A program made the position numbers and the translations under genes. This document shows positions 17,831-64,000 of a stretch of 64,000 nucleotides of DNA, piece by piece (position 1 is the first letter of the stretch; every line of letters starts with the position of its first letter). Below the pieces are notes generated by a model. The model was given only the letters and a program-made list of their open reading frames with translations. It ran no database searches and had not been told where the DNA came from. The stretch comes from Negaprion brevirostris. Its lineage: Eukaryota. Where the stretch lies: contig JARDVH010000110.1 in assembly GCA_030324005.1 (NCBI GenBank), positions 21,826,989 to 21,890,988 of the forward strand. The letters run 5' to 3'.

Positions 17831-17874
17831 TTTCCAGCAGATGTGGTGTTCAGGATAGGGGATCAAAGCTCATG

Positions 17875-18180: not shown

Positions 18181-18455
18181 TAAAGTTTATTTATTTATTA
18201 CTACCACAAGTAGGCTTACATTAATACTTCAATGAAATCATTGTGAAAATCTCCTAGTTGCCACACTCTGGCGCCTGTTTGGGTACACTGAAGAAGAATT
18301 TAGCTTGGCTGATGCACCTAACCAGCACATCTTTTGGACTATGGGAGGAAACCGGAACACCCGGAGAAAATCCACGCAGATACGCAGAGAACGTGCAGAC
18401 TCAGCACAGAAAGTGACCCAAGCCAGGAATTGAACTTGGATCCCTAGTGCTGTGA
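18181..18455 (-). mobile_element. HE1/V-SINE, tail type B
   Basis: B-box, V-domain, and tail ending AATAAATAAACTTTA on the minus strand. Confidence 0.88.
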
Positions 18456-18949
18456 CAAATCAGTGATGATGATCAATATTATCAAATTCAGTTTGATTGT
18501 TCGGTGTTTCATTGTGTGCCTATTAACTGTGATCTTAGTCAAGCCTGTGTCTGGTTCCAGGGGAACAGAAACTGAAAGCAAGCTTGAAGCTTGATTGTGC
18601 TGCAGACATTTAAAAAGTGTAAATAAAACTCTTGTTCAGGTATCAGGCGGAATTGTCCCTCCTCTGATCGTATTGCAGTGGTGCGTGTTGCGATGGTGCC
18701 ATTCCCACTGGCTTGAATAGCATGAATATGTACCCCATTCCACACTTGGAGCCTAATTAATTATGCATGAGTGGTTAGCTCTCCACCTTGTGAGTCAGGA
18801 GCAGATTTGTCTGCCCACTGTCAGTTAGCAGGTTCAAAGGTCCCGGTGCTGTATTTAAATACCAGTGCAATATACTCATGTCACTCTCTCCAGTGTGCAT
18901 GTGGTCAAGGGACTGCCTAGGATGTCATCCATCTACAAGCAAAAGGCCA

Positions 18950-19200
18950 TCTTGCTCAAGAAGAAGTCAGAATACTGATTCAGCCATCAGTCCTTTGCTG
19001 TCTTAATCCAAGGAATCCAGCCACTGGCAGCATGTCTTCTGCGCCAGGGATGGCTCCAAGAGCACCTGAACATCATTTCTCAGGCCTAGGATGCAGTCAC
19101 ATTGAAGATCAGCAAGGCTGGTAACTGCACCAGAAGCACAACCCAGTGCAGGAAGCAGATAAATGAACTCTTCTACCAGGGTAAGTCTTTCTTCCACTCC
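18950..19200 (+). mobile_element. Harbinger Myb/SANT ORF remnant
   Basis: RSTTQCRKQINEL followed by a GGTAAG donor-like site; matches trihelix RT..QCRKK.NDL. Confidence 0.55.
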
Positions 19201-19549
19201 CTCCAATATCAAACTCTCATTGTGGCATCACGTACTCCAATGGCTATTTTCCTGATGGATCTCGCACATCCATTGGCAAGGATCATATATTAACACTCAT
19301 TCCTTTGTGGAGACTTGCACTTCACTCCAATATCATCTGTCATATTGCTCATGTTCCATCCTTTGCGCCTTCTGGGGAGGACTCACCACACATGCACACA
19401 CACCCCCTGGTGAGGACAAGATTCTCGCCATGACTGAATTCAAGGAGGTTGCAGCAGAATTTGCTGGGGAGTACACGCTTGTCCCTGTGAGAAAGGGGAG
19501 ATTAGTTTATCTCAACAATCTAGCATGGATTTCAACTCCATCACTTAAG

Positions 19550-20225
19550 ATCATAAGACATAGGAACAGAAGTAGGCTATTTGCCCATCAATTCTGCCCT
19601 ACCATTCAATGAGGTGACTGGTCTGTTATGGTAATCAACTCTCGTCTTATCCCCATATCCTTTGATTCCCTTGTCGATTGAAAGCCTGTCTATCTCAGTC
19701 TTGAACATACTTAACAACCAACTTCCGTAGACTGCTGTGGTAAAGATTTCCATACATTTACTATCCTCTGAGAGAAGAAATTCCTCCTCATCTCTGTCTT
19801 AAGTGGGCAACTACTTACTCTGAGATTATGCCATCTGCTCCTAGATTCTCCTACAAGGGGAAACATACTCTCAGCATCTATCCTAACAAGCCCCCTGAGA
19901 ATCCTACATGTCTCAATAAAGGCATCTTTCATTCTTCTAAATTCCAATGAGTACGGGCCCAACCTACTCAACTTCTCACAAGAAAATCCTTCCATACCAA
20001 GGATCAATCTTGTGAACCTTCTCTAGACTGCCTCCAATGCGAGATCCTTAGATAAGGGGGACAAAATCGTTCACTGTGTTCCAGGTGTGGTCTAAATGGT
20101 ACCTTGTGCATAGTTTTAGCAAGACTTCTCTAATTCAATACTCCATTCTCTTTGGAATAAAAGGCAACATTGCATTTGCTCCCCTATTACCGGCTGAACT
20201 TGCATGCCAATTTTTTATGATTTAT
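19550..20225 (-). mobile_element. CR1 3' portion
   Basis: ORF 19711-20007: LGPYSLEFRRMK...MFPLVGESRSRWHNLRV...EMRRNFFSQRIVNVWKSLPQ. Confidence 0.9.
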
Positions 20226-21077
20226 GTCCTTGAGGTGCCTAATAGTATTCCTTGATTGGCCTAATGGATGATAAATTTATGTTGCCTGGATATTTTCATT
20301 TCCATTCTTATCTTTGTATTAACAGGTTTTGTTTTACAAATTAAAATAATGCACCAACTGCTCTTCTGAAGCGGAGCGGGGGAATATTCTTCCAGAATAC
20401 TGCTGACATTTGTTCTTTAACCATGATCAGCGAAACAAATTTTCTGTTTGTTATCTCACTTCAGTTTGTGGCACCTGATTTGGTTGTAAAAAGTGCTATA
20501 ATAACATCTAGTCCTATTTTTTCCTCCTTCACAAATAAAGGAAATCTGAATAATTCCTATAGCACCTCTAGTGATTCAATTGATAAGCTTGCACTTGGAC
20601 TTCAGTTAAATATTTCAGCGCCTAGGCTCAAACGTTTTGTTTACAGCAAAGTATGATATATCATTTAAAAGAAAATCAATTTTTCATTTAACTTTAATAG
20701 AGCTATAATAAAGCAGACAGTTCTCTTTTATTCTATGTAAAGCAGCTTTCATGTTTTCTTAGAAGGAATTTTAATCATGTTAAAAATTCCAAGTTAGAGG
20801 GATTTATGGCCCCCAAAACATTTTATCGTTACTTTGTCCCAAAGCCGGATTAAGTTCTGTTCCGTGAGCTTTGCAGGGTTGAAAAAAAATCAATTGATAC
20901 CTTATTGTTAAACTTTACCAGATTAAAGTTAACTGTTTAAAGTTGCAGTAAGGAGGCTTCCCTGACCTATTAAATAGAGAAATGAGGCAAGGAAGAAGGT
21001 CATAATGTCAGCATTTATTTATATTTTTGGAATATTTATAATCCTGTGACTCATGACTTCTACATGTAATTGTAGGG

Positions 21078-21485
21078 AAGACAGTGGCATTGTGATAATG
21101 CCACTAGACTAGGAATCCAGATGCCCAGGCTTGTGTTCTTAGGGATATGGGTTCAAATCTTGCCACAGGTGAAATTTGAATGCAATTCATAGGTCTGGAA
21201 TATAAAACCAGACTCAGTAATGGTGACTATTAAACTACCATCAATTGTTGTTTAAAAAAGAACATCTAGTTCATTAATACCCTTTAGGGAAGGAAATCTG
21301 CTGTCCTGACTTGGTTTAGCCTACAATTGATTCCAGACCCAAAGTAATGTGATTGGCTCTTAACTGCTGTCCGAAGTAGCCTCAGTTCAAGGACAATGGC
21401 CTCAGTTCAAGGGCAGTTAGGGTTGGGCAACAAATGTTGACTTTGCCAGTAATGCCCACATCCCATGAAAGAATAAAGAAAAAAA
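21078..21485 (+). mobile_element. Full-length tRNA-derived SINE (second family)
   Basis: A-box-like TGGCATTGTGAT, B-box GGTTCAAATC, core TTTAGGGAAGGAAATCTGC, LINE-like tail and A-rich end. Confidence 0.85.
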
Positions 21486-21693
21486 GCCAGGACAAGTTAA
21501 TCAATAAAATGAGTGACAAATTGTCTGGAATCAAAGTATTCTCAGTCTCTGCACTTGAATAAATTATAAAAATGAGACAGTGTGGAATAATAAGTTGAAA
21601 TTATGCCTTACATACCTGCACTTAATTACATAGATTACTTTCTTAGTTGCTATGGGAAGTCTCTGAAGTGAAATTTTCTGTACCATCCACAGA

Positions 21694-21740
21694 TTGTGAG
21701 GTACAAATGATGCAGTAGCTGCATCATTTGTACCTCACAA
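21694..21740. repeat. Perfect 22-bp inverted repeat with 3-nt loop
   Basis: TTGTGAGGTACAAATGATGCAG-TAG-CTGCATCATTTGTACCTCACAA. Confidence 0.97.
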
Positions 21741-23559
21741 AGCCTCTGAATGCACTCATATTTTCCATGGATTTTAATGTTCAGTTGGGCAATCAAAGTC
21801 AAACCAACATGAATAAAATGGTTCCATCTGAAATGTTAACTGAAGAGGGAAATTACTAACCAGCTAATAAGGTTTTAGACAGAATACATAAGGCACTGAC
21901 AGCACTACCAATAAAGAGTTAATTGATTCTTGAAACAAAGTTAATAAGCTAATGAAACAAATAGTTTACACATATATGGATGCAGGAATAGAATTAAACA
22001 AGTAATTATGATTTTAAAACATATATATTGATATTTTAAATGTATTTTAGGTATTATATGAATCATTGTTCACTTTAGCCAAAAGCTGCTTGCCGAAAGG
22101 GATAATGGGAAAGGTGAAGAATTCAGAGTCGAATGCCTTGGAGCCCCATAGTTAGTGAAATTCATATCAGTAAGTTTCTTATGAGGGAACATAGCTTGTA
22201 ATACTATGAATCGGTCCATTCATTGTCTAGACTTATTTTAGGGACGTGCCTGGACGTAGGAACACACATCTATTCAGGTTGGCAATGATTCAATGGGAAC
22301 GTCCACTTTGACCCCTGTAGCAAGCATTGAGGGTAACCAAACAACCAGGAAGTGATTTTTAGCCAAGATAGGAGTTAGCACCTGGATTAAATGGATGAAT
22401 AAGATATTCTGCTGGATGGTTAATGTAATTGGCTGAGGTGTATATCAGGAATTATTATTGTTGTATGTTCACTGAATGTAATTGATTTTAAACTAATGTA
22501 AGGCAGGAATAATTGATAAGAAAATCTATAATTGGTCTGTTTTTGATTGTACACATTAGATTTATTGGAGAGATTCTGTTGCTCTATTCCTTTTGGTGAT
22601 CTCTGAGCCGCTGCTTGTTGTATTTTTGTTTTGAACGCATGTTACATCTTTAAATAGAGATATCTACCTCATGATTTTTGTATTGTCTATAGTTAAAGAG
22701 CGTACCAGCCATCTCAGTTTACCCCAAAACATTAACATTTCTAGAATTCAATTTCATTCTGGCGAATAAGCGGTCAGCAGTAACTTGGTTACAGTATTTA
22801 ATTGCTCTGATTTTTAATTCATTGCTCCCTCTCATCACTTCCATTAAAATATTTCCTTGATTTAAGAATATTTTCACATAGCCTCTCTATTCATATATCA
22901 TTGAATTATCAATTAGTTACTTTGTGTTTAATGCTTATCTATTGAAATCCATTGTCATCTAATCAACCTGTAATTCATTCAGACATGAACCTGTCATGGG
23001 GGTCTCTTTGCAGGCATAAAAGTAAGTATAACCCCCAGGAAAAAGGGATGTGGCCAGGCCGTAGCTTGACACTGCCCCTTGGCACAGGTTGGCCCCTGCC
23101 AACCTGACAGTGCTACCTCTGCCAAAGGGGGATCCCAGTGGGAGCCTCATGAGCAATGTGGGGGATCTTCACTTAGACTGGGTTGTGGGCCAAGAGTGGA
23201 CGGAGCAACAGGGGATACCGGTGACATCCATTGAGGGAAGAGGGTGTGCAGGCGAATGATGGCTCTGACTTTATATGGGGAGGAGCCAATGTTTGGGAGG
23301 TGGGGTGCAAGAAGTGCAAACTCTGATAGGGATTGGGAAGGGAAGCTCCTGAAACCTCCATGGCANNNNNNNNNNNNNNNNNNNNNNNNNNNNNNNNNNN
23401 NNNNNNNNNNNNNNNNNNNNNNNNNNNNNNNNNNNNNNNNNNNNNNNNNNNNNNNNNNNNNNNNNNNNNNNNNNNNNNNNNNNGTGGTGAGATCAGGAGA
23501 AAAAATCGACCTGTTTCTGAAACATTCTGGTTTTCTAACTGGAAACAACGCTGTTATTT

Positions 23560-24030
23560 TTTGGTAAGGTAAAATCAATGAAGTCAGAGGTCACTTCTAG
23601 GAGTAGTTTCTACATCCCCATACAGTAGTTACACTATAAAGCAAAACATATAGGAAGCAATAAAGGGTGTGCAAAAAAGGCACTACAATAACCATGGTGA
23701 TTTTAATCTACATGTAGATTAGGCAAATAAAATTGGCAAAAGTATCCTTAAAAATAAGTTCATAGAGTGTATTCAGGATAATTTCTTGAGCAGGATGTTC
23801 TACAGCCAGACAGTAGGCTGTCCTGGTAACTTGCAACGAGTGAGGAAAAATCAATAATTTCATGATTAAGGAGCCTGTAGGTAACAGTAATCACAATAGG
23901 ATGGAAATTTATGTTCTATTTGAAATGGACATATGTGGGTCCGTGATGAGTCTTTTAAATCTAAATAAAGATAACTATGATGGTATGAAGGCAGAGGTAA
24001 GCTGGAAAACTAGCTTAAAATATAGGTGGT
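23560..24030 (+). mobile_element. Decayed CR1 endonuclease region
   Basis: GDFNLH at ~23696, FIECIQDNFL, KEPVGNSNHNRMEI. Confidence 0.7.
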
Positions 24031-24339
24031 CGGTGGAGGAATTGGGGCAGTGAGGTGGTGATTGACAACCAACCCACTCCCAGAAAATGAGTTGGCAATA
24101 ATGAGACTTGGTGCCTCTTAATCAACATTTTAAATTTAACCCTGAGTGGCCACATTTTCTGGTCCTCAGGAAACCCAACAGCTAAAGGGAGGTGAGAAAA
24201 GGTGGATCCAGAACGTACGTTCCTTTCTACTTACCTATGACTCTTCCTTTCTTCTACATGAGGTTTTTGATTGTCCCACTGATCCACATTAAATCTGCCC
24301 TGAATTCAGCCACCAATTTGCATTCTGACCTCGATCTCT

Positions 24340-24592
24340 CTCTATATAAGGGTAGGCACATATAGGGTTTGTGGGAATGGGTGGAGTACTGTCCAAGAAC
24401 ACATGACATGCACGTGGAAGTCAGTCCAGTGTTAGACAGAGCCATTCCCACCAGCAAGCATGGAGACAGCTCCTAGTTTCAACCCTTTTGTATGTTCATT
24501 GTTCTTGTACTTAATAAATATGTAAAGTTAACCTTCTTAAGACTATGAAAACTTGATTAAGATCTACTGATTGGTGTCCAACACCATACAAC
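24340..24592 (+). mobile_element. Possible short solo LTR
   Basis: AATAAA at ~24514 and terminal ...TACAACA; 5' end unclear. Confidence 0.35.
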
Positions 24593-25584
24593 AATCTCTT
24601 GCATCATCCAACCTCTGAACATGCATCAGGTTTCTAATCTCACCACTTCTCCAGGCCCCAATCTTCCCTCTGATCTCTGATCATCCCAATTCACCAGCGT
24701 CCTCACACTGTTCTCTTATTTGATCTCTCTTTCCCTCCTCTCCACTCCCTGGCCAACCTGACAATGTGGCTGACAATGGCCAGGAAACGGACCTAAAACA
24801 TACAAATTGGGCCCTATGGGATCTGTTGGAAACCCATTTTCCACTCTGTGAATAGAATATTCAAGCCTGAGAAATTGACTGCCTGCCCATATATTTTAAA
24901 ACAATGCCATGATACCTGACAAGCTGCTATGAATGTGTTGCTGGTGTTTATATTAAATTACAACAAGTATTGAGTTCTGAAGCAAATTAATAACCTAGAG
25001 TCTATAAGCTCTTTAATTGCAAATTCTTTTCAGCAGCTGAAGGCTGAAATTGAATAATTAAATGTTTTCCTGAGTATTAATGTAAACGTTACAAAGGAAA
25101 TGTGAACAGTTTCATTCAAAGGTGTACCATGGAGAATTGAATGGTAAAGCCTAGTGATTTTGGGAGTATTGGTATATCGATAGGAAAACTTCAACTATCA
25201 CGCTTGATCGTTGATTATCATGTAGGGGACAGTCTGATTGTCTAAGAGTTAAAGCACTCCCATGCTGATGTTGGATTCTCAGAACTTTGGTAAATATTAA
25301 AACTTAAATTATCAAGTCAGGAGAAATTGATTCACTGTGCCAACTGGTTTTGGGACTTTACAGCTGAATCAATGTGGGGTTGAAAGAATACTCATGCTAA
25401 AACAATAACATTCATAGATCTTTACAGCATAGAAGGAGGCCATTTGGCTCATTGTCTACACCAGTCAACAAAAATCTGACTGCAAGCATCCCATATTCCT
25501 GAATTTAGCCCATAGCCCTGAAGGTTATGGCAATATCTAAATACTTCCTAAATGTTACGATAATAGCGTGACATACTTCAGATG

Positions 25585-25902
25585 TTAGAATCATAGATTC
25601 CTACACTGTACAGAAAGAGGTCATTCAGCCCATCGAGTCTCCACTGACAACAATCCCACTCAAGCTCAAAACCCGTAACCCTATGCATTTGCCTTAGCTA
25701 GTCCCCCTGACACTAAGGGGCAATTTGCATGGCCAATCCACCTAACCCAGACTTCTTTAGACTGTCTGAGGAAACCAGAGCACCCAGAGGAAACCTATGC
25801 AGACATGGGGAGAATGTGCAAACTCCACACACACAGTGACCCAAGGGAATCAAACCCAGGTCCTGGCACTGTGAGGCAGCAGTGCTAACCACTGTGCCTC
25901 CC
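25585..25902 (-). mobile_element. Full-length HE1 SINE, tail type A
   Basis: Minus strand GGCACAGTGGTTAGCACTGCTGCCTCACAGTGCCAGGACCTGGGTTTGATTCC, V-domain, TCTATGATTCTA tail. Confidence 0.9.
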
Positions 25903-26229
25903 TTGTTGTCTAGAGGTTTCAGACTCTGTTTGGAACAAAAGGTATATATTGATAATAAGAAACTTTTACAAGTCATTGCCTCCAATGGCTGCCTGGAGCA
26001 GGGCTCCAGCCTTCACATGTTTACTATGTGGCTGCCAGATGTATTCTAACCATAAGAGGATTTCAATCTCTGGAGCAATCACTCGTTCCCGGTTCCTCAA
26101 GCTAGGGGACAATCTCCTGTGTACTGCCAAAAAGAGTCAGACACCATAACCACTGCATTCCAATTCCTTTAAATTTTTACACTATCTCCAAAATAGGTTC
26201 CCTCAACCCCCACAAACTAAACTAACATT

Positions 26230-29200
26230 ATATACTCAAATTAGACATTTACAATCAATGTAGTGATTGTTCAAAAATGAAATCTTGAAGTTGACGTTTA
26301 ACATTACACTTTTACTTGTAAGCTTCACTAATGCCAACTCCAAATATAGTCTTGTCTGGGCCTCTCTACACAGGCTTGCTGCTTCCTGAGTTTTGTCACA
26401 GACTGTATGCTGATCCAGGATTGCATACATTACTTTACAGATAGTGTCACTCTCTGATCCTTTTCCTTGTCAAGCACCTTATTCTACAATACCTGCAGGT
26501 ACTATCATCATAAGACAACAAAGTCTCATGCCTTGACGGCTGATTCACAAACTTGCTGTGTCACTTGTGAAGGAAATGGTTGTGGTATTCTAAACTCCCT
26601 TCTCTTCCGAGCATTTCTAATCAGTATCTTTTGCAATTTTATTAAAGCAGCAGTGTTGTTCTGGCAAGTTATCTCAGTTTCTGTCTCTGTCTGAATTGCT
26701 GCTTTGTCCAAGTTTTCTCTGGTGGAAGCTCTTCAATCAGGTATCTTCATTTCCTAATCTCTTCCTCTTCATCTTCTGCCTCAATCCTGCTCTTGCTTAC
26801 ACTTGAGTTGTTCCTTATTCCAAATATCCTCTTCCGCCTCTGCTCACAAGTTCATTGCACTTGTCTCTACCAGTTGTAGTTTGATTTGAGCCCATTCCAG
26901 CCCTTTGCAAGAAATTTCCCATTAGCTGACATTTTTCACCAGCTTAACACTCTGAGAATGAACATGTTCCTTTTGCTCAGTTGAATCGAACTCTCCTTCT
27001 ACATTCATCTTCCCTCTTTTTGTTATCTTTATCAGACAGTTCTCCTGGATTGCTTACTGACTCCAACAGTTTTGATTTGATTTGATTTACTATTGTCACA
27101 CATATTAGTACACGGTGAAAAGCATTGTTTCTTGCATGCTATACAGATGAAGCATACTGTTCATGGAGAAGGAAAGGAGAGAGTGCAGAAAAGTTAAAAG
27201 TTTATTTATTTGTCACAAGTAAGGCTTACTGAAATGAAGTTACTGTGAAATTCCCCTAGTCATGTAGTGTTACGGTTATACCTAGGGTGTGGGTCATGTT
27301 TGGTTTTTGGGCCTGTCCATTGCCATGTGCTCCTCAGCATCCTCAAACACCAGGCATTTTCTGCCTATCACAGAATGCCAATTTCTCAAGTTCATTTGTC
27401 CATTTTACACCATTGGCAGTTTGATCACTTGATTTAATTTCTCAACGATTCCCAATAATGGCTCTGGTAAATAATAGCTCTGCTCTAATTTCTGCTTCAA
27501 CAGCACACTGGTTCTTGCAGTAGATTATATAGGATGTCTTGAATGATCACCATGAATCAAATCCTTGCTGTGTTTTCTTAGAGATTAGCAGTTCTCTCAC
27601 CCAAACTGATAGCGTCTATAACATGGGATTTCCTTGGCTCAACTCGAGTTCCATGTTATGACCTCTGTTGCTCAGTTCCACTTGATGTTTCTCTCAACCT
27701 TTCTTTCTCTTTATTCACATAATCCTGCTCTAATTCCAGTTATTTCACCACTTGTCGGTGAATGTTGTACTGTTTCTCACTGGCTCGAAAGGATTTCCTA
27801 GTAACTTATGACTTTTTCAGATGGCTTGTTTCTCCTAACCTCGGTAAACTGGGCTTCTTGTCATTTAGATTAGGGCCACGTCTTTTTACCTTATTTCCTA
27901 TTTGCTGTAGTTCTTGGTTAAATCTATTTAACTCTTTTCTCTACTGTTACTACTTCTGCTATGGCTTGTCTTATTTTCATACTGATTACAGACTTATCGT
28001 TTGCTTGCAGCTCATTGCTAAAACTTTGAGGGATCTTCTCATTCGAGTACAAAAAGACAGGACTCATCCTAATCTTGCTGACTTCAACTCTTAAATTAGT
28101 CAATGAGGGTCTCTGTTGCACTCTTTCTGGGTTTTCTCTGTGCCCTCCTCCAAAGTCTCTATCTCAATGCTCTATCCCCTCTCAGCGGTTTCTCAGTACC
28201 CTCCTTTCAAGAAATATTTTCTGTTCACTCTGTGGCTGGTGTTGCCTCTTCCTTGATGTCTTAATTTCATCCACTGAGGTTTTACATTGCTTATGGATCC
28301 CCTTTTTAGAGTTCCTCTCTATCTGGGGTCTTCTCTATTTTTCTCGTCCTTCATCTTTGTTCCTTCTTGTAGTTGTTGCATTAAATGTTATACAACTCCA
28401 AGTGCATTATCTCTTTAAATTTCTTACTGCTTTAAGACAGATTTAAGACTGTCAGCTTTTTTTTAGCCTGTCAGCAACTGCCTCCTCTCTGTTTATTCCC
28501 TACATATCTGGAGTTTTGGCAGGAATCTGTAGCTCCCTCTCTGAACCTTTTTAGCAGTTGTAATATTTCTCTTTTCTTTTTCAGAAGGCTTCTCAGCGAC
28601 TTTTGCAGTTTTTTTTAATGCTTTTAGCCGCCTGGAAAGTCCATTTTTTTTATCATAGTGCAGGTTTCCCTTTTTAATTCCACTATAAGTTTTAGCTAGT
28701 ACTGTCTGCTCGGGACCATTATTATTTAAAAAAAGTTTCCATTTCTTTATCTCCCAAACAAATGGAGGTTTTTCTCCTACTCCAAAACATAAAACCCCAC
28801 TGCCTGCAGTTCCACAGTGCTGGGACCCCTACCAGGGGCTACCTCCCCACCCCCACACCCTTCCTGTTCAGATCATGAACTGAGAGTTTCAGCCTCTTTA
28901 TTTTCCCACAATTTTGAAAATGATCCTGCGTTTTTCCCTTCTATCTCCTTTTAGCCCCTGAACCTGTCCAACTGCAGTAAATCTCAGCCTTCTATCCAGT
29001 TTCTTCTTTCAAAGTCCAAAGCACAGTCTGTGTATCTCTTCTTTTTACTTCAAACACAACTCTGTTTCCTTTGTTTTCCATCTTTCCACGGGAAAAAAAA
29101 CCTATAGCAGTCCCTGACCTTCGCTTTAGCGTAATGTTTACTTCTCTTACTCTTAAAGGCTCTCTGAGCCTCTTCATCTTCAGCCAGGCACTCGGCCAAA

Positions 29201-42490: not shown

Positions 42491-43124
42491 GCAGAGTGTT
42501 GGTGTTGCAATCTCAGTGTCAGCTCCTTCAGTGTTTTTGAATTTTGGAAACAATTTAAATAAAAATACTAGTCTTTTTCAAAATTCTCTCTCAGGCAAGA
42601 TTTCCTGGCCTCAGTTTTTACAATAGCATCTGATTGTAATATTGTTGATGTTAATTTCAGGATGACACAGACAAAATGGATCTTAATGAGGAATCTGCAT
42701 TTGACCACTGTGTTAGGAATTCATGTTAATCCCTGTTCATCCTAAACCTTGGGACATTTTGTCCATTTTACCTGAACTTTCCCACTCACTCCCAGGCCAA
42801 CAAGGCTTTAAGCTTTCCATCTGCATCAATTTTCTGACCAAAGCCTGCTCGGTAAGTTCTAACCCCCTGTACTTCCATGTGCATCTCTAATACTCATGAT
42901 TGATCCCTCTTTTCCATGCAGATCTGACCTGGACCCTCTGCTCCCCATTACTATGCTTAGTATAAAATCAGAAAAGTCTACTTCACTGTCAATTGAATCT
43001 GTAAGCCACACCATTGGCGATCTCTTATTTACTTGAAATTTCTCTCCAAAAGTCTGTTAAACATGAAGGAGTCTTGTCTGGATACCGTCCTCCGAGACTG
43101 ACACCGCCTATTTATTCATTTTAT

Positions 43125-43420
43125 TTATTTAGTTATTTGTGTCACAAGTAGTCTTACATTAACATTGCAATGAAGTTACTATGAAAATCCTCTCATCAAC
43201 ACTCCAGTGCCTGTTCGGGTACACTGAGGGAGAATTTAGCATGCCTAATGCACCTAACCAGCACATCTTTCAGACTGTTGGAGGAAACTGTAGCACCTGG
43301 AGGAAACCCACATGGGTAGAACATGCAAACTCCACACTGATAGTGACCCAAGTCGGCAATCTAACCAGAGTCCTTGGTGCCGTAAGGCAGCAGTGCTAAC
43401 CACTGTGCCATTGTGTCACC
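43125..43420 (-). mobile_element. Full-length HE1/V-SINE, tail type B
   Basis: Head GGCACAGTGGTTAGCACTGCTGCC on the minus strand, V-domain, type B tail. Confidence 0.88.
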
Positions 43421-43614
43421 CACAGAGAGGGCTATGCGTCATTAACTTGCATCTGTTCAGTGTAATACAGGCATCAAATAAACTTGGTGCTGCTTGCATA
43501 TCTACATAATTATTGCATGCACCTAGAAGTAATCATGCTGTTGTTGGCTACCTGTATGAGCAGGTGACCCAAAGTCAAAACTTGTTGGCACCTGTTACAA
43601 AGCTAGCCTGCACT

Positions 43615-45684: not shown

Positions 45685-47420
45685 GGAGAAAATAGTCCTT
45701 GAGAGTAAACTTGCAAGAAATGTAGCAACGGATTGTAAGATCTTCAACAAATATGTGAAAGGAAGAGATTAGCAAAAGTCAACATAGATCCCTTAGAGGC
45801 AGAGACATAAGAAATTATATTGGGGAATAAGGGAATGTCAGAGACGCTAAACAAATATTCCTAGCAAAACTACATACTTGCTTATCCTGGTTGTCACTGG
45901 CAGAACTGAGGACTTCACTATAGTGGATACACTAAAGGGTGGCTCGGTGGCACAATGGTTAGCACTGCTCCCTCACAATGTCAAAGACACGGGTTCGATT
46001 CCCAGCTTGGGTGACTGTCTGTGCAAAGTCTGATGTTCTCTCTGTATCCAAGTGAGTTTCCTCTGGTGCTCCTATTTCCTCCCATAGTCTGAAAAGACAT
46101 GGTGAGGTGCATTAGTCATGCTAAACTCTCCATCAGTGTACCCAAACAAATGCTGGAGAGTGGCGATTAGGGAATTTTCAGACTAACTTCATTGCGGTGT
46201 TAGTGTAAGCTGACTTGTGACTAATAAATAAACTTTAATAAGTATAGATAAGGGATTGGAAGGAAGGGAGGAATACAGGGAAATTACAATCATCATGGAA
46301 GTGGTACTTAATGAATTGTTGGAGCTGTAGAATGACAAGTCCCCTGGGTCTTAATGGAATTAATTCTAGTGTCTTAAAGAAGTTGATGCGTTAGTTTCCA
46401 TTTTTCAAAATTCTCTGGATTATGGGAAGGTGTAACTAGATTGGAAAGTTACAAATGTAATGCTTTTATTGAAGAAAAGGAGGGAGACAGACAGTGGGAA
46501 ATTACAGGCTGGTTAACATCTGCCATAGGGAAAATGTTGGAAGTTGTTATTATTAAAGACATTAAGTCAGGGTATTTAGAAAAATTTAAGACAGCTAGGC
46601 TGAGTCAACATGGTTTTATGAAAGGAAAATTTATTGGAGTTCTTTGAAGGAGTCAAATGTGCTGTTGAGAAAGGGCAACTGGTGAATTATTGTGTTTAGA
46701 TTTTCTGAAGTCATCTGATAAGGTACCCTATCATAGGTTATTCTGGAAAATAAAACCTCATGGTGTACAGGGTGACATATTGGCATGCTTAGAAGATTGG
46801 CTAGCTAATAGGAAACAGATGATAGCCAAAAATGTGTCTTTTACTGGTTGGTGGGATGGAAAGAGTGGTGTGCCACAGGAATCAGTTCTGGGGCCTCAAC
46901 TTTTCACAATTTATATAGATGACTTGGATGAAGGGATGAATGCCAAATTTGCTGATGATACGATGATAGATAGGAAAATAAGCTGTGGAAAGGATGTAAA
47001 GATACTGAAATGGGATAGATAGGTTACGCCATTTTATTTAAAAGAAAAGTTTGGACAGGCTGGGCTTGAACCTGCTGCAGATTAGAACAGTACGCAGTGA
47101 CTTGATTGAAACATATAAGGTGTTGACCCTCTGGATGTGAAGATGTTTTATCTTGTGGGGGAATCGAGAACTCGGGGTCATTGTTTAAAAATAAGGGGCC
47201 ACTGTTTATATTTATGATGAGAAGACATTTTTTTCTGAGGGTAGTGAGTCTTTTGAATTCCCTTCCTCTAAAAGCAGCTGAAGCAGGGTCTTTGAATACT
47301 TTCAAGGCAGAGGTGGATAGATTATTGATACACATGAGGGGTGAAAGATTATTGGGAGCGGGCAGAAGATGGATGGAGCTGGCTTGAAGGGCTGAGTGGT
47401 CTACTCGTGTATGTTCAGAT
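45685..47420 (+). mobile_element. CR1 ORF2 (RT) and 3' end, decayed; HE1 type B inserted at 45938-46238
   Basis: SQHGFMKGK, LDFLKSSDKVPY, GVPQESVLGPQLFTIYIDDLDEG...KFADDT, FFLRVVSLLNSLP. Confidence 0.92.
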
Positions 47421-47684: not shown

Positions 47685-48000
47685 TGGCACAGTGTCACAG
47701 AGGCACTGCTGCCTCACAGCGTGAGGGGCCCAGTTCAATTCTGGCCTCGGGTCACTGTCGGTGTGAAGTTTGCATATTCTGTCTGTGTCTGCAAGGGTTT
47801 CCTCTGGGTTCTCTGGTTTCCTCCCACAGTCTAAAGATGTGTGGGTTAAGTTGATTAGCGATACTAAGTTGACCCTCGTACCAGTGGGGATTAGCAGGGT
47901 AAATGTGCGAGGTTACGGGAATAGGGCCTGGGTAGGGCTGTACTCAGTACAGACTCGATGGACCGAATGGCCTCTTTCTGTACTGCCGGGATTCTATGAG
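47685..48000 (+). mobile_element. Full-length HE1 SINE, tail type A
   Basis: GCACTGCTGCCTCACAGC, GTTCAATTC, V-domain, GATTCTATGA. Confidence 0.9.
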
Positions 48001-54009: not shown

Positions 54010-54260
54010 TTTAACTGTGAAAATCCCCTATTCGCCATGCTCCAGCGCCTGTTCGGGTACATTGAGGGAGAATTTAGCATGGCCAATGTACTTAATCAGC
54101 ATGTCTTTCAGACTGTGGGAGGAAACCGGAGCATCTGGAGGAAACCCATGCAGTCATGTGGAGAATGTGCAGACTTCACATAGACAGTGACCCAAGCCAG
54201 GAATCGAACTTTGGCTGCTGGCACTGTGAGGCAGCAGTGCTGACCACTGTGCCACAGTAC
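54010..54260 (-). mobile_element. HE1/V-SINE type B inside an AT-rich LTR-like repeat (~53760-54940)
   Basis: Full HE1 head and V-domain; host repeat has minus-strand AATAAA at ~53872. Confidence 0.8.
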
Positions 54261-55289
54261 CCCCCACCCATAAAAATCCAAGTTGAAGGTTTGTCACTGT
54301 AATAAAGATACATCACACAAATTCTGAAACATCGTCACTTTAATGTATTTCCAAAAAGTAAGTTCAAAAACAAAGTTTTGTGAAAACAGGGGCCCTTCTG
54401 CTAAACACTGATTGGCTGCCTTCAGTTCAAAACTTTCATAACTTGCACAAAGAAGCTTGTCTTCAAGGCTTTTCCCCCGTAGCCACCATAACTTAGTTAA
54501 ACATCCTTCCTTAAGTATCCTTCTCCCCTTTCACTTCAGGTTCCATTGACCTCAAACCCCTCCTTTGAATTCAATTTCTTCATGTATAAAAAATCTTTCA
54601 TGCTTTTCTATTTTGCCTCTGTGTCCAGCTCAATAAAATTTAATATATATTTCCCTGTTTGCCCATGAAACCTTTGTAAGATGTAAAAGTTCCTTATCAT
54701 CTCTGAACTCCCTTTTGAAATTCAACAGCTAAAAGACCAACTTTTTCATCTTTCTCACGATACCAATTTTAGATCCAACCTATTTGCTTGTAACTCAAAC
54801 TCACCATAACCTCTCACTAGAAATTAATCAACATAATACCTTTAAAACTTTTATCTTTTAGTCTTCACAGACAACCTGTCTCTAGGTCCCTTCCCCCTGT
54901 TCAGTTAACCCTGGACACAGATATATGCACACATGTCATCTCTCAAGTTGAAGGGATGGCAGCTATTTACAGCTTCTGCAGTTGACACTTTAAAGGTCCG
55001 ATTAATTAATGCTTTAATATAGTTGTAGCAACAGCTTTTTTGTTTAGAAAATTACAAATAGGTGTGTTTTTAAGCAGTTCCACAGATGCTGTTATTATCC
55101 TAAGATGCATTGGTTCTGTATCGAGTATTTACTGGGTGAATTGGTAGGGAAGTGCTATGAGTTGTCATGGAGGGGGCAGGAGGCATGGGTAAGACCATTT
55201 AACCTTCCATTTCAAAAGGTTCCCACATTGAGATTATGGTTTATGACTCCTCTCCAGGGCCATGAATCACAGTCATGGAGAATATGGCC

Positions 55290-55577
55290 TGAGTCCAGGG
55301 ACCTGGGTTCGATTCGAAGTTTGGATCACACTGTCTGTGTGGAGTTTGCACATTCTCCTGGTGTCTGCATGGGTTTCCTCCGGGTGGTCTGGTTTCCTCC
55401 ACAGTCCAAAAATGTGTGGGTTAGGTTGATTGGCTATGCTAAATTAACCCTTAGTGTCCTAGGATGTGATAGGTTAGAAGGATTAGCTAAGCAGGGTTAG
55501 GGCTTGGATGGGATTGGTGTCAGTGCAGACTGTTTGGGCCGAATGGACTCCTTCTGCACTGTAGGGATTCTATGATC
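55290..55577 (+). mobile_element. HE1 SINE, tail type A, 5' truncated
   Basis: CCAGGGACCTGGGTTCGATTC, V-domain, CTGCACTGTAGGGATTCTATGAT. Confidence 0.88.
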
Positions 55578-57379
55578 CTCAAAAATCATTGGGAGGGCGT
55601 ATGGGGTGCTAGGATATTCCTACCCCCACAATGGAGCCAGCCAGGTCAGGAGTGGAGGCGGTGGCTAGCTGCCTACACCCTTATCACACACCTACAAAAA
55701 TTGGGGACACCAGGGATGGTAGCCCACTGCCATTTCTAAATGGTTTTGGAGTCCACAAACTTCTATCCTATTGGCTTTCACATATGGCACAGCTTTGATA
55801 CAATGAGTAATTGTTTAAACTTCCTTCATTGCTAGATTAATCCATATAAATTCCTTTCTGCTTCTTGTAATATTATTTTCATGACTTCAATGTCAGCCTC
55901 ATGAAGTGGATCTATTTTGTGTTAACAAAGAATGCAACAAGATGACAGCATATCCAACCTGGNNNNNNNNNNAACCTGGTTGACATTCTATCAAATGTGA
56001 TCCTGAGCGTAGCTACAGGGAGTACAATTTGCACTTGCATTTTCTAGTCCTCGCAATATGCAAATATTGAACAAGAACTGTGAAGCAGCTTGACTCCTCG
56101 ACCTTTACCAGTGTGGTAACTGCAGTGTGTGAAGCGTATTGTTAACACATCCAGATTTCTAGGTTTTGCCATTTTGAATAAGTCCTGTTATCCAGAGAGA
56201 TAGAACAGTTGTCCTTGGAAAGAAAGATATTGAGTAGTTTCATGACTTTTCATACAAGAAGCTAGAAGTAGGTTACATGTACCACCTAGCCAACCCAGAA
56301 AATAGAAAGACATTGATACATCCCATGTGGGCTGTCAATGGCTGTAAACTGATAGTGTAAGAGCAAGAAGTTTATTTCTCCAATAGGATAATCTATAATC
56401 AATGTTAGATTGATTAATATAAAGATATTAGCGATGATATGTATCACAAAAGACAGTTCCTGCCTTTGATTATTATAGCGTATAAAGTTACTTAATTCAA
56501 TTTTATTACCAGTTAATAGTTTTTGCAGAAAATCATATTCTTCAGCTGATCCACTTGAAATGACTGCAACAAAAGCAGAAAATAATGAAAGCACTCACCA
56601 ATATTTTCTATTTGTGCTTCAGATTTCCTGAATTTTTATTTCAAGTGACTGCAAGTTTGATTGAAAAAACATCTGAGGAGTTACTCAATCGAACCATGTC
56701 AGAATGTGATCTGAAGCAAAAAGAATATGAATGAATTTAACACATCAGAACAGTCCATGCAGCTACTCAGTGCAATGGTTAACTTCCATCTGACAGCCGA
56801 TTCAATTTGCTGGGTAGATGTTAAATGAAGTTGCCAAAGTGGGAGAAGATTTCACAGCAGGTATCCCTGTGGATATCACTATCCTTACTATTGCAGTATA
56901 TTTCAATGTTGATATTCATTCCAGCGAACTGTAACATTAAAAAAGAATGCATGAATATCAAACTGACGTTGATTTTGAAGAGGCATACCTGCTCATATAA
57001 GGAAATTAATTAAATCCTACAAAAAGCCGTTTGTTAACATTTGACTGTTTAGACTGGGCTAATGATAGCTCTAACAAAGGGTACAATTTAGTAACTGTGG
57101 ATTTCTCTTAACCTATTTCCAAACTTAATATAGATCACTTTCTAGGAGATAATATTTTCATTCCTTTTCGTCAGTCATTGTTCTTTCTGAACTGAACCTG
57201 TCAGATTAGGAGCTAACCTTTTATAGAGTGGCTTGAGACTGACATTTTCCTGAACTTTATTAAAGTGTGGCTTGTAACAACAGGATCTCATCCCTATTCC
57301 TTGGATTTAATATAAAATCCTGGGATTGGGGTACAGACTAGAACTAATAACTTCTGTGAAGGTGCTGTGCCCGAAAGCA

Positions 57380-57575: not shown

Positions 57576-58557
57576 TCTCTGAACTTCATGCTAGCTGCTC
57601 TCTGAACTACACGCCAGCCACCTGAGCTCACCAGCCCCCGCATAGTATAATTACACATATTAAACAGTATTACAATAAACTTCATACAATCCTGACATAG
57701 GGCCTCAATATCTCTTAGTTGCACATGGGAAAATTGCCTAATAAAGATCCTGCTCGGGATCAATTCAGCAAGACTTTATCTGCCTTCAAATCAGCCTTGT
57801 TTTACTGTGCCCATGACCATTTGAAATTTACATCTTGGAGATAAGACAGACTGAAGCCGGGATCCAATACCAGTGGGATTTCAAAATCATAGTCACTATG
57901 GTTGTCTCGGGATCTGATGCTTCCAGGATAATTTAAACTTTTAAAGCTCTGGTGGCGGGGAAGGGAGCAGTAAGTATGTAACCTCATGATATTTTTGTTA
58001 TCACATTTTCTATGTGGTTCAGAGTAACAACAATGGTGTGTGTCCAATTCCCATGTTTGCTGCCAATTAACAGCCCATTCATTTGGGTAAGGGGCTATAA
58101 GGGGTCTTGTGACTGACCTACCTCAACTCCACAGCCTCTCACTGTCCCTTTATCCCTTAATTCCATGATATTGATCTCCACCTTGAAAATGCTCAACAAC
58201 TCAGCATCCACAACTCTTTGGGACGGGGAATTTCAAATATTCACAACTGATTTGACCGATTATCTTAAATTTGTTGTTAGCACACTCAGGATGGTTTGGG
58301 TTTTGCAAGCATAGGCTGGTTGAACATGGTCTGTACTCTTTTAAGATAATTTAAGATAACCAGTCAAGCTCATGAAGTGGCTTTTTAATGTTTTCAAGAA
58401 GTGACATACATTTAAAAGCAGGGATCTGTTCAATGTAATCAGAAGGAATATGTTCAAGCATTTTTTAAGTTACCTGCAAATGTGGGGAACCTATAGTTCA
58501 TCATTGCTTTCTCCATGACAATGCCTTTGATTTGCCAACCAATCAGCATCTCTTATA

Positions 58558-59200
58558 TCCGAAGGGATATATTGGCCTTGGAGGGAGTGCAGAGAAGGTT
58601 CACCAGGTTGATACCGGAGATGAGGGGGTTAGCTTATGAGGNNNNNNNNNNNNNNNNNNNNNNNNNNNNNNNNNNNNNNNNNNNNNNNNNNNNNNNNNNN
58701 NNNNNNNNNNNNNNNNNNNNNNNNNNNNNNNNNNNNNNNNNNNNNNNNNNNNNNNNNNNNNNNNNNNNNNNNNNNNNNNNNNNNNNNNNNNNNNNNNNNN
58801 NNNNNNNNNNNNNNNNNNNNNNNNNNNNNNNNNNNNNNNNNNNNNNNNNNNNNNNNNNNNNNNNNNNNNNNNNNNNNNNNNNNNNNNNNNNNNNNNNNNN
58901 NNNNNNNNNNNNNNNNNNNNNNNNNNNNNNNNNNNNNNNNNNNNNNNNNNNNNNNNNNNNNNNNNNNNNNNNNNNNNNNNNNNNNNNNNNNNNNNNNNNN
59001 NNNNNNNNNNNNNNNNNNNNNNNNNNNNNNNNNNNNNNNNNNNNNNNNNNNNNNNNNNNNNNNNNNNNNNNNNNNNNNNNNNNNNNNNNNNNNNNNNNNN
59101 NNNNNNNNNNNNNNNNNNNNNNNNTCTTATTGAATGGTGGGGCAGGCTCGAGGGGCTAGATGGCCTACTCCTGCTCCTATTTCTTACGTTCTTATGTTCT
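58558..59200 (+). mobile_element. Young CR1 3' portion, mostly in gap
   Basis: RRDILALEGVQRRFTRLIPEMRGLAYE; tail GGCTCGAGGGGCTAGATGGCCTACTCCTGCTCCTATTTCTTACGTTCTTATGTTCTT. Confidence 0.9.
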
Positions 59201-60149
59201 TTCTCCTAGAGAATGAATTGTTGTTGTTTGAATTTTAGAATTCTTACATTTGTTCTGAAGAATGCAGGATGAAAAGCTTCAGCAACATATCTCTCTAACA
59301 AAATTTAGAAGACAAATAATTCACATGACAAAATATTGAATTTCACATTTGTATGTCACTTTTTAAATCAAATGTGTGAACTTTGAAAACTTATACTTAT
59401 TTTTCTTGCAATCTCATGGTGCATTTGATCATCACAATGTTTCAGTTTTTAATTTTGCTGTCATCCTAATGACAGGTTTGCTAAAACTTTTTGTTTTCTT
59501 ATTTTTTTTTCACTTTACCATTAAGCTATCAGAATAGTGCTCCATAATGTCTATATATACACTCTCTCCTGATTCACTGCCTGACCTTTTCAGTTGCTCC
59601 AGGCCAATACTGTTGAGATCAATACTTCAATTGCCAAGACAGATTATCAAAGCTGGAACTAAACTGACGCATAGGGTCACTTTCTGATTGAGCTTGCAAT
59701 ATGCTGATGCCATTTCTGAGCTAGTTGTATTGTTAAGTCTGGCATTCGTGATGAATGATACAGTTTGTAGTGGCCCATGTTCAATCCACCAATCCTAAAT
59801 GAACACATTGACTTTGCAGTCATAACCGAGCAAGGGTAAATAGGCTTTGAAGAACAGTAATGATTTTCATTGTCAACTATTTATAGCTAAATGGTAAACC
59901 TTGTATTTAAAATTTTGTTATAAGAAGTAAACAAAAGAATCTCCCAAATGTTTTCCAATATGCAAAGGAGCCATCAGCGGTGCCATATCACAAAACACCT
60001 GATAACCTTCTCACTGGTGCTCTCAGTTCATGCTCCTCCGAACCACTCCACTCCAGATCTTATTACCACTGATAAGGCTGAAGACAGGAGTGCAATTGAA
60101 TATTCACCACTTGCCAGGATACAAGCAATGGTAACAACAGAAAAAGAAC

Positions 60150-60225
60150 AAATTCATATAGTGCCTTTCACAAATTCAGGGTGCCTCAAAGTGCTTCAGA
60201 GCCAATAAAGTACTCGTGAAGGGTG
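60150..60225 (-). mobile_element. DeuSINE (SacSINE1/AmnSINE1-like) 3' tail fragment
   Basis: Minus strand GTACTTTATTGGCTCTGAAGCACTTTGAGGCACCCTGA...GTGAAAGGCACTATATGAAT resembles the recalled DeuSINE tail. Confidence 0.55.
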
Positions 60226-61739
60226 AGTGGAAAAACACGCAGAATGCTTTAATTTGCGATATCCCAGGCAGAATAATTTGCCTGATTTGTACTCCTGCTG
60301 CAATATCCACCTCCCTTGGAAATCACTATTTTTGTAATGAAGAGCCTTAGTGTAGAAAGTTGCTCTTTGGAATATTCCCCACTGAAATTGGGCATTGACT
60401 TTGTTTTTGTTTCAATTCCCTTAGGGGGCAAGGTGGCCCCTTAGCTTACAGTGACCAGGTTGGTAATTGTACATGGATAGGTCTGAGCGATGACACAGAT
60501 TCAGCATGACATTTAGCTGCTGGGACCCAAACTGATATGACAATATAAATCTCTATCTTATTTATCACATCACACAGTTTAGGTGTAATTGGTGGAATTG
60601 AATGCCCCTCCACAGTGAAGTTAGAGATGGCAAAAGCTGTGTGTAGGATGGCAATCACATCACCCTGTGGTTTCCCTTCAGTTAAGTCCAGGATGGGAAG
60701 ACTTGTGAGAGGCCTTNNNNNNNNNNGAAGCCAATTGAAACCTTGTGTTTGTCAGAGAACAACCAATGATTCTATGATCATGGGCACCCTGTGCCCATTT
60801 GAAGGACTAGGCATTGGGAAGATGGCCCTGCAGGAAACCAACTGCTATTTTAACAGGACTCCATGGAGAAAAGTGATACAGGATTCCTATCAGTTCTCCA
60901 ACTGGTAGGCGAGAGACCTGTTGCCCACGTCCTGACTAATCAGTGACAAGCCTATTAACTGCTTATAGTCTCTTTCAGCTCCTCTACTGGCAAGTTCTAT
61001 CACACCCATGAGGCGTACTTCCCTCATAATGTTACATTTAACATGCAGTACCCTGAATTCATTTTACTAACCTTCAAATGACATTAGCAAGATGTCACAC
61101 TCTTTATTCACTCAAGTTAGAAATTGCAAGCTTTTCGAAATACATTAAACTTTGCATGTAATTTTCATCCTATTTAACATTGGGTACAGAAATTTTCTCA
61201 CAGATAAAATTCTTAATCAATTGTGAATGTAAACTGTAACTTTTATGGAATGAAGAAGCAGTATCAGGTTATCATAGTGTAAATGCTGGCTATAGGATAG
61301 TAACAAGTGCTCACTCACTTGGTTAATGGTATGTTTTATATATAATTATCATCCTAGTATTTCTCTGTTTAATGTATTACAATAAGTTTTTGTATATTTG
61401 CAGAGTGAATAGCTGCCAAATGCAGCTATTCATTGCTGTAGCAAGTCAAGCAAATGCTGCTGTTTATAAGCCTGAACACATTTGCCCTATGAATAATCAG
61501 TAGCTTCTATATCAATGCAGTGACAGGCCCTTATCCGTTATGTAAACAATGTAAGAAAACAAATAAAACAGTAAGTTAAATTGCCCTTACACAGCTGAAC
61601 AAACAACACTACTAAAGTGTGAACATAACCATGACTTCAATTGCAAACTTTCATACTTCTATTTGGACTCTGTAATTTTTCCTTTGTTTATGCATTTAAA
61701 GCAGAAAGTTATTATCAACTTTTAAACAATTTTTTTCAG

Positions 61740-62070
61740 CCAATTTCTGCTCTTCCTTTCATTCATGGGGAGGACTCATTGCCAAGTGGTGATGAGCCAT
61801 ACATTAACCTTGATGATGACTGTTGACAAGTTGTTTTTCCATGGGGACCATCATATTTGAGCCTCATCTGGCATTCAACCTGAATTGTGGGATGCCATCT
61901 GGGGATGGCGAATACCAAGCTGCTTTCCTCCAACCTAAATTGGCGTTCCCGAGACTCCGCTTCTGAGATCAGTTAACTCAATTCAGCTCAGGGATTGAAA
62001 CAGTGAGCTTATTTTCCTCTTGTCAGTCAGCAACTCGTTGGTCAAACTGCATTAGCTGTTTGGGAGCTAT
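61740..62070 (-). mobile_element. Old tRNA-derived SINE (fourth family)
   Basis: Minus strand GTTTCAATCCCTGAGCTGAATTGAGTTAACTGATCTCAG (B-box-like plus body). Confidence 0.45.
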
Positions 62071-63039
62071 GGAGAATGGGGGTGGGCGGGGGAATCAACA
62101 TTTTAATCTAGTTGGTTGTTTAAACTTTCCAGAAGGCCAAAGCTGACGTAAATAGTATATTTTGCTTTAGATCAATAAAATTCTGTACTCAGCCAGCATC
62201 AACAGTGGAAGTTAGATAAGCCTATGAATCCCATAATAAGATCATTTTAATCCTTTCATATTCAGAAACTTTTTCCGATGGATAATTTTTCTGAGGTGGA
62301 GATCCCCACTCTATTATTGCAGTGGTGTATGATTACCATGCTTCATAAAACAGAAAAGCTGAAAATCATCTTAATTTTACTCATTGAACTCTGGACAAGA
62401 AAAACAGATGGAAGAGAACAACTGGCAAACAAAAAAAAAGAACCAATAAGCAGAGATAAAAGAGAGTATGAATGAAGAACAAATTAAGGGATGACAAATC
62501 ATGAACACAAATTAGAACAGTACAAGTAGGAACAACAACAGTATATATGAAAAATATTTTTTTCATAGAATAAACTGTATCACTTCATTTGGAATTATTT
62601 TCAGTAAATATAGTGTTTTATGGTGTTTTCTGAAACAATTTTGCTACAGCTTTTCATGTTCATACATGAATGTTACTGAAGCTTGCAAGTGGTTCCATAA
62701 ATATTTAATCAATTAATTCACTAGTATATCAAACTGTGCTGACTACGGGAGGGATACTTTGGGAAAGAACATCTTTCATATTGACAAGTTGCATGGAGGT
62801 TAATAGCTGGAATGTTTGTTCATGACTGTTGCATCTGGAGGGCACCTTCAGTAAATTACTGTTATCCTGAAATTTTGAAAATTCATGACAGGAACACCAT
62901 GATCAATAATGTTTGTAGAATCCATCCATCTCCTAGTGACTATTTTTCTAAATGATCCTGCAAAATTAACAATAACGACTTTTTCCATCAACTGAGTCTA
63001 GTAGAAATTTCAAACGTTTAACCTCCTACCACATGTACA

Positions 63040-63390
63040 ATTATATACAGCCATGCCCATGGTCACCATGTCAGTTTATGCTTTTTTGTTGTTTTTATTC
63101 CAATTCAATCCAATCAACTCCAATTCAGAGTCTGAACAAGTTGGGACATTCCCGATCCAAGCTGACAAGACAAGGGTCTCAGCTCCTGTCTTGGGCTTGA
63201 TCTACATGATCCAAGCTGATTGGAGTAGGCACAGTTCCTCCTCCAAGACTTGATCTCATTTGCATTTTAGCCAAAAGGCCAAGCTGCCGCTTTTAAAAAT
63301 TGCTTCAAATGAAGCTGAAATGTAACCTAATGATTTCAACCAAGCACATCATGTCGATACCACATTTCATCTTAGCCAAAAGGCCAAGAA
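63040..63390 (-). mobile_element. U2-snRNA-headed retroposon-like element (SINEU-like, or 5' end of a U2-targeting LINE)
   Basis: U2 head, second internal U2 copy, three CAGCTTGG-initiated units, (GAATTG/GATTG)n and an A-rich tract. Confidence 0.6.
63356..63390 (-). pseudogene. U2 snRNA 5' fragment (nt 6-40)
   Basis: TTCTTGGCCTTTTGGCTAAGATGAAATGTGGTATC vs vertebrate U2 TTCTCGGCCTTTTGGCTAAGATCAAGTGTAGTATC: 31/35 identical. Confidence 0.9.
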
Positions 63391-63864
63391 TATGTTTAAG
63401 TAGAAGTGAAATGGCAATAGCCTATTTCGACTGCGTAGTAGGACATTAGGATTAGTCGGCATTTCTCTACAATACAGTTGCAGAATCAATGTAATAGAGA
63501 ACTTTTTGTCACTATTGTTTTCTAATAAAATGATTTTTAATTGCATCGAGGAACAAGTCATGCATTTTCTATAATATGAATTGTTTTTAAATACAGATAT
63601 TTGGTTGTTCCTGCTTGAGCACTTGATGTGATCCTGTGGCTTTGTAATTTAATATATTCATTGGCTGTATTTTCTAAAAAACTAAACAGGTCACAGTTGA
63701 CAATCTCTCACTTCTTCTTAAGTAGTCCCTCAGGATGGAGATTGACTTCCATTTCAGCTCCACGGAGTCCTAAGTGGCTGATAAGTCCAATGCATGATCT
63801 TAATCTTTTACTATTAGCACTATCGCACATTGACAGAACGCCTGTTGAGATTGTATCCACCTGT

Positions 63865-64000
63865 TGGAGAATTTAAGCACAGGGGCACAGTTTCAGAATG
63901 AGGGACCAATCACTTAGTGCTGAGATGAGGCGAAATTTCACTCTTTGGAATTCTCTGCCTCAAGAGGATTGTGAATGCCTCATCGTTGAAATAATTTACA
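63865..64000 (+). mobile_element. CR1 3' fragment
   Basis: AGGGGCACAGTTTCAGAAT...GAGATGAGGCGAAATTTC...TTTGGAATTCTCTGCC. Confidence 0.65.

Follow-up and report, generated by a model that had tools for sequence, protein, structure and literature searches.

The minus strand of the window (the whole stretch of 64,000 nucleotides analyzed here) carries, close to its far end, a piece of U2 snRNA that gives way abruptly to unrelated sequence, which raises the question of what kind of element such a junction belongs to. A sequence-only reading had offered two answers, i.e., a U2-headed SINE family or the dispersed 5' end of a LINE that targets U2 genes, such as Keno or Utopia, and had named a chance neighborhood of a truncated U2 pseudogene as the finding that would speak against both.

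What we observed directly is a repeat with defined ends, two U2 heads, duplicated modules, shorter sister forms, and head-to-tail copies, present in two species. It is highly probable that these copies form a dispersed family of U2-headed retroposons. We further suggest, with a probability of about 0.7, that the segment from 63390 to 63082 is a retroposon of the SINEU type, likely copied from Pol II transcripts by a LINE of the Tx1/L1 type, with a cartilaginous fish as its likely host, and composed of two U2 heads, duplicated hairpins, and an A-rich tail.

Extent, copy status, and dispersal of the element

Contig placement and comparison with the majority letters of the family define a repeat copy at 63082-63390 on the minus strand, which is 309 bp long, A-tailed, and non-coding and represents the long form of a high-copy, dispersed, U2-headed family. 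The copy diverges from the family majority letters by about 4.5% (14 listed places in 309). The element had been thought to run down to 63040, a span that has to be shortened, as it ends at 63082. The assembly is gapped within the window (ten runs of N, 1,467 bases); the nearest run lies at 60717-60726, and none is found less than 2 kb from the element.

The repeat status was gauged from public sequencing runs, four of which were aligned at 80% likeness. Part of the stretch was present in 20 of the 22 listed runs (12 studies); 13 of them held at least 0.2 of its 33 words, and none held half. Six runs with small shares were set aside. None of the runs containing part of the stretch is recorded as RNA; that of the second organism may be. 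In one run, the contigs covering the two flanks (62750-63111 and 63319-63700; 362 and 382 letters) showed 0 differences from the window, from which it follows that the run comes from the same species and is possibly the window's own source. This run placed 4,329 contigs on the stretch (404 at 99% identity or more, 1,100 at 95-99%, 1,786 at 90-95%, and 1,039 below 90%), so the single-copy status that would have told against the sequence-only reading was not what we found. Summed depth amounted to 6.8-7.8 (about 7) in most flank bins versus 92,869-215,197 in the eight bins between 63102 and 63357. The ratio between inside and flank, computed for four bins, is about 13,000-29,000, a value that is no copy number and is inflated by overlapping contigs. 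Read from the depth of this one same-species run, possibly the window's source, the abundance of the family is of the order of ten thousand.

At 63082, 75 same-species contigs depart into unrelated letters that disagree with each other (agreement of 0.36), which reveals that copies at unrelated loci end at the same 3' position; five contigs do so in the run of a second species. At the other end, head 1 is entered from 1,025, 552, and 626 unrelated letters in 3 of the 16 pieces listed (records 7, 14, and 15), whose orientation was inferred from flank contigs. The run of the second organism shows the same footprint and the same majority letters (108 contigs). Two raw-read runs, with one read out of 10,085,944 and none, respectively, provide no test of the family. 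Self-comparison found no second copy within the 64-kb window, and exact-motif scans of metagenome, viral, and prokaryote collections gave no match to the family body, as expected of an animal repeat. A candidate TSD of 7 bp (63391-63397, minus strand), located after TT and like 63083-63077 in 6 of 7 positions, is not above chance, since a score as high was reached by 306 of 2,000 random flanks for this one copy.

Given the high copy number, the dispersal, and the common 3' end, this copy is not a lone U2 pseudogene, and a LINE 5' end is unsupported for it. Of the two answers offered from the letters, it is the U2-headed, SINE-like family that held: its copies are numerous and occur in two species, their flanks are unrelated, they finish at one A-rich 3' end, and long as well as short forms bear U2 heads.

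Two U2-derived heads

Head 1 (63356-63390, minus strand) corresponds to nt 6-40 of U2 snRNA and is identical to a fetched U2 gene at 31 of 35 positions, exactly as had been read from the letters. A profile built from fetched U2 genes matches 63390-63356 with an E value of 4.4e-06, and Rfam reports a U2 match at 63395-63197 (31.9 bits; E = 0.0012), under the gathering score of 46. Out of 107 distinct fetched U2 stretches, the profile comprises the 23 that have an Sm-like site. That only 23 of the 107 distinct U2-starting metagenome stretches fit the Sm-site pattern may mean that the pattern is too strict or that many of them are variant or truncated U2. After nt 40 of head 1, no U2 likeness was detected (119 of 300 shuffles were as good, and nhmmer gave no match), which confirms the abrupt switch; on the same grounds, we rejected the outer unit as a decayed U2 extending up to the Sm site, even though its T5 run falls some 3 nt away from where the Sm site would stand.

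The change of GTAGTA to GTGGTA, noted earlier in the branch-point-pairing segment, is present in the copy; as a feature of the family it did not stand, because at 63361 the U2 letter is kept in 4,387 of 4,765 depth units of the same-species run and in 54 of 68 of the second species. The change is private to this copy. Two further non-U2 letters of head 1, at 63368 and 63365, are absent from the listed variable places in placed contigs. Moreover, two letters are common at 63317, and either of them can pair with the non-U2 G at 63368 but neither with the C of U2, a link between head 1 and the abundant body.

Head 2 (63253-63284, minus strand) is a diverged copy of U2 nt 7-40, approximately. It matches head 1 at 25 of 27 positions by blastn and the U2 profile with an E value of 0.0033, and 15 of 2,000 shuffles were as good. 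In this copy the head is blurred by private changes: across the family, the most frequent letter is that of U2 at 63284 (99% of depth), at 63281 (62%), and at 63266 (99%). The head stands at full depth (142,259 at 63266). Three units beginning with CAGCTTGG had been described; two of them are real duplicates, and the first (63286-63279) turned out to be the start of this overlooked second head. A third, eroded U2 remnant (nt 25-40) possibly precedes module B at 63199-63211 (minus strand), with a weak score (57 of 2,000 shuffles). The resemblance to U2 breaks off after the same nucleotide, nt 40, in both heads and perhaps in the third remnant.

The depth over head 1 falls to 2,627 in its bin (4,765 at 63361 versus 123,643 at 63334); either a human-sequence filter drops contigs with U2, or about 4% of the copies keep head 1. 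A fragment of U2 nt 1-42 followed by unrelated sequence was also encountered in a contig filed as viral (387-427, minus strand), which is likely an animal U2 retrocopy.

Hairpin modules, tail, and length forms

The element as a whole folds better than its shuffles (z = -3.35; 0 of 100 as good), and each head precedes a hairpin. In hairpin module 1 (63316-63369, minus strand), the U2-derived segment 63369-63360 is predicted to pair with 63316-63325; taken alone, this module is not significant (z = -0.06; 80 of 200 shuffles fold as well). A T5 run at 63295-63299 (minus strand), which is T6 in 45% of same-species depth, separates the outer unit from head 2 and would likely stop Pol III. Overall, the T runs of the element are T4, T5, and T4.

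Module A (63208-63255, minus strand), recognized by its fold and by alignment to module B, is matched in folding by 16 of 200 shuffles when taken alone. Module B (63154-63202, minus strand; z = -2.57) is a duplicate of module A whose stem is built from other letters that again complement each other. The alignment between the two was reached by 0 of 2,000 shuffles and follows one common frame, and in the upper stem 4 of 6 pairs have changed on both sides with pairing kept. The lower part of module B is common to all forms seen. Among 40 variant rows, 14 break a pair of the predicted fold, mostly in minor stems and in the tail, and four common same-species variants in the main stems, all transitions, keep the pairing. 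Paired stems can also come from fold-back copying without selection. The variant of module A at 63231 and the short sister forms (63173-63176) carry an identical 7-nt hairpin loop, pointing to an ancestral module; on the plus strand, this loop presumably resembles the U1A-binding loop of U1. Over 58000-64000, no other Rfam family was found at an E value of up to 1, none reached its gathering score in the window, and no tRNA gene was found; thus, the element contains no known ribozyme.

A G/T-rich 3' tail (63100-63153, minus strand) leads to AATAAA at 63099 and an A-rich tract, as had been proposed. These last two (63082-63099, minus strand) constitute the common 3' end of the family, supported by the 75 same-species and 5 second-species contigs mentioned above. 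An alternative tail departs at 63154 in 42 contigs. Shorter forms also start with U2: in 8 of the 12 joint rows listed (11 contigs), a U2 head is joined to 63171-63176 with 20-40 other letters between them, and 39 contigs depart at 63203 into a U2-like consensus, which represents short U2-headed forms. Furthermore, four joints lead from the tail back into a copy, in a head-to-tail arrangement, and one of these is a tandem head-2 monomer in the second-species run.

Surrounding repeats

The window also contains copies of a tRNA-type SINE, six to eight of which match each other (64-533, 18186-18455, 25586-25901, 43124-43423, 45937-46238, 47685-47999, 54014-54267, and 55299-55579) and which end in two different 3' tails, one with a short repeat at the end and one with an AATAAA-rich tract. 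We take these copies to be V-SINE/HE1-like. On that basis, a host other than a crocodilian is fairly safe, and a shark is likely; a protein search gave seven hits, the single named one coming from a bird at 44% identity, and was uninformative as to the host. One of 18 ORFs matched Pfam, namely, RVT_1 at 46669-47019 (plus strand; E = 1.1e-4), a decayed LINE fragment. Two further decayed LINE fragments, at 2219-2782 and 19714-20022 (both minus strand), had no Pfam match and look, to us, CR1-like.

Origin and transcription of the family

According to the explanation that we prefer, an ancestral RNA consisting of a hairpin and a tail would have gained U2 nt 1-40, with the joint just after nt 40 and at most 2 nt from the Keno/Utopia target, either because it inserted into a U2 gene and was read through from the promoter upstream or by a template switch. 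The unit of U2 piece plus hairpin may then have been added again on the 5' side, giving forms of about 150, 210, and 310 nt. Pol II would read master copies from promoters lying outside them, with polyadenylation at AATAAA, and a LINE protein would prime on the A tail, often beside an older copy; the hairpins may have persisted owing to a role of the RNA fold in copying. The T4 runs in both heads and the T5-6 run between the units fit transcription by Pol II. No partner LINE was seen, and the tail had no significant match within the window.

The minus strand contains what we assume to be A-box-like and B-box-like motifs. An A-box-like motif lies in head 2 (63263-63273) and another in head 1 (63378-63368); a B-box-like motif follows the head-2 A box by 60 nt (63194-63202), and another is located at 63255-63247. 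It is conceivable, albeit improbable in our judgment, that Pol III transcribes the same family, using an internal promoter made of U2 pieces, in which case the 210-nt form would be a genuine SINE of the Pol III kind; a single change at U2 nt 28 would give the A box, and a downstream U2-like stretch would give the B box 60 nt on. The occurrence of the A-box motif in both heads and of the B-box motif where each module begins argues for this possibility, as does the pair at 60 nt, which arose in 11 of 5,000 shuffles. The whole window holds five such pairs, two of them in the repeated tRNA-type SINE copies and one more resembling such a head; neither motif occurs in any of the 23 fetched U2 genes (with a search pattern that fixed nt 28), no T4 follows head 2, and the head-2 monomer occurs in tandem in the second species. 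However, the motifs are presumptive and were spotted after the fact, and, since U2 itself is one letter away from each of them, the shuffle test overstates the case for Pol III. Moreover, each A box comes straight after a T4 run and T5-6 splits the units, but the outer unit does not fall behind the rest in abundance. In the shortest forms, the motifs of a pair would be too near to each other or even overlap. Runs of T4-T5 are tolerated by other SINEs, according to the available part of one study (PMC4758252).

Equally doubtful is the wider proposal of an old, very abundant lineage of snRNA-headed SINEs in cartilaginous fishes, independent of SINEU, whose tRNA-type Pol III promoter would derive from two U2 fragments, with the A box in U2 nt 18-28 and the B box in the next hairpin. 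If true, this would represent a new route from a Pol II snRNA to a SINE head. Further A/B-box pairs outside the main repeat occur at 43622 (plus strand), which resembles the head of another tRNA-derived SINE, and at 32961 (minus strand).

It also seems unlikely that a U2-headed LINE of the Tx1/Keno type gave rise to the element by internal deletion, leaving a non-autonomous remainder made of 5' UTR modules and the LINE 3' end, or that the element is the 5' end of such a LINE. A crocodilian LINE, Tx1-11_Crp, carries a U2 head like that of SINEU-1 (PMC4494074, in the text available), the U2 likeness stops at nt 40, adjoining the Keno site, and 235 further loose-end rows could hide LINE junctions. 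Against this stand the common 3' end with unrelated continuations; a 3' flank that does not resemble U2 from nt 39 onward (822 of 1,000 shuffles were as good); and the 12 loose ends listed, none of which looks like a shared long extension. The extension into APE-RT ORFs foreseen for a LINE was not seen either: there is no long ORF near the element, and neither of the two flanking ORFs tested has a Pfam match. Hence, the disagreeing departures at 63082 and the nature of the 3' flank do not bear out the proposed Keno/Utopia 5' end, either for this copy or for most copies.

Finally, independent fusions of truncated U2 retrocopies to an unrelated repeat that normally lacks a U2 head could account for the low depth over head 1, and there are precedents both for retrocopies of U2 and for chimeras made by template switching (PMC4494074), while the contig filed as viral holds a bodiless fragment of U2 nt 1-42, but a chance or one-off juxtaposition is very improbable in view of the full depth of head 2, the identical junction of head-1 copies at unrelated loci in two species, the pairing of non-U2 letters of head 1 with the body, and the short forms that also begin with U2. 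A truncated U2 retropseudogene without a shared body was ruled out, as a high-copy body is joined to the head at other loci and in two species.

Comparison with known systems

The element, as preferred here, is probably retrotransposed and belongs to a type for which only crocodilian examples have been described to date. A second abundant snRNA-headed lineage, in cartilaginous fishes, would imply, if true, that this class arose twice or is far older. The graded forms, the near-identical contigs (404 of 4,329 at 99% identity or more), and shark transcriptomes would make the choice between Pol II and Pol III testable. In addition, annotations of shark genomes may mistake such copies for U2 genes.

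Titles and abstracts, mostly of non-subscription literature, contained no U2-headed SINE of cartilaginous fishes; an entry may nevertheless exist in Repbase or Dfam. None is described in the available portions of PMC5381603, PMC4758252, PMC7245038, and PMC5499810, and a term search of the main text of two shark genome papers (PMC11979771 and PMC12498223) returned no mention of SINE or snRNA. A paper on the spiny dogfish names, as known SINEs, only HE1 and SacSINE1, and HE1 is listed for sharks and rays in the accessible part of PMC3747384. HE1 and SacSINE1 (PMC10468316, PMC3747384, and PMC5499810, as far as their available text goes) are, like our family, short interspersed retroposons, of likely the same hosts, but they have tRNA heads and CR1/L2 tails, whereas the family described here has U2 heads and an A tail.

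In the sections available of the respective papers, the U2 sequence downstream of Utopia begins at nt 39, with Keno sharing the site (PMC4640811), and the Keno insertion site in U2 is described (PMC6136364). The U2 likeness in our element ends at nt 40, within 2 nt of that site. Different from Utopia and from Keno, which belongs to the Tx1 clade, the element is 309 bp long and dispersed, lacks endonuclease and reverse transcriptase ORFs, ending at 63082 with no long ORF nearby, and is not followed by the 3' part of U2, its loose ends being mutually discordant. In the U2-headed Tx1-Mar LINEs, such as Tx1-11_Crp, a piece of U2 has likewise become the permanent start of a retroelement (PMC4494074, partial text); different from them, no coding extension was seen in our element.

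Kojima (2015) described crocodilian SINEs headed by U1 or U2, named SINEU, with recurrent 5' addition, poly(A), tandem copies, oligo-T, and a Tx1 partner clustering with Keno; the available text reports none outside crocodilians and no promoter-like sequence and leaves the mode of transcription open (PMC4494074). The element shares with SINEU-1 a U2-derived 5' end (31 of 35 positions in head 1, with a second head and U2-headed short forms), a short, non-coding body below 500 bp (309 bp) in thousands of dispersed copies (4,329 contigs, with unrelated flanks at both ends), a 3' poly(A) (AATAAA and the A-rich tract at 63099-63082), tandem copies, and 5' additions and partial duplications on a common 3' part (two heads, duplicated modules, and three length forms). 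Oligo-T runs (T4, T5, and T4) are present as well, and so is an A/B-box-like pair, which, together with the duplicated hairpin modules and with no U1 piece seen, distinguishes our element from SINEU-1 as described. A further difference lies in the host, crocodilian for SINEU and here most probably a non-amniote, whose repeated tRNA-type SINEs we presume to be V-SINE-like. V-SINEs are absent in amniotes (PMC6887750). We do not file the element as a member of SINEU, since its host is most probably not a crocodilian. Judged by its build, the element would nevertheless appear to work in the same way as SINEU.
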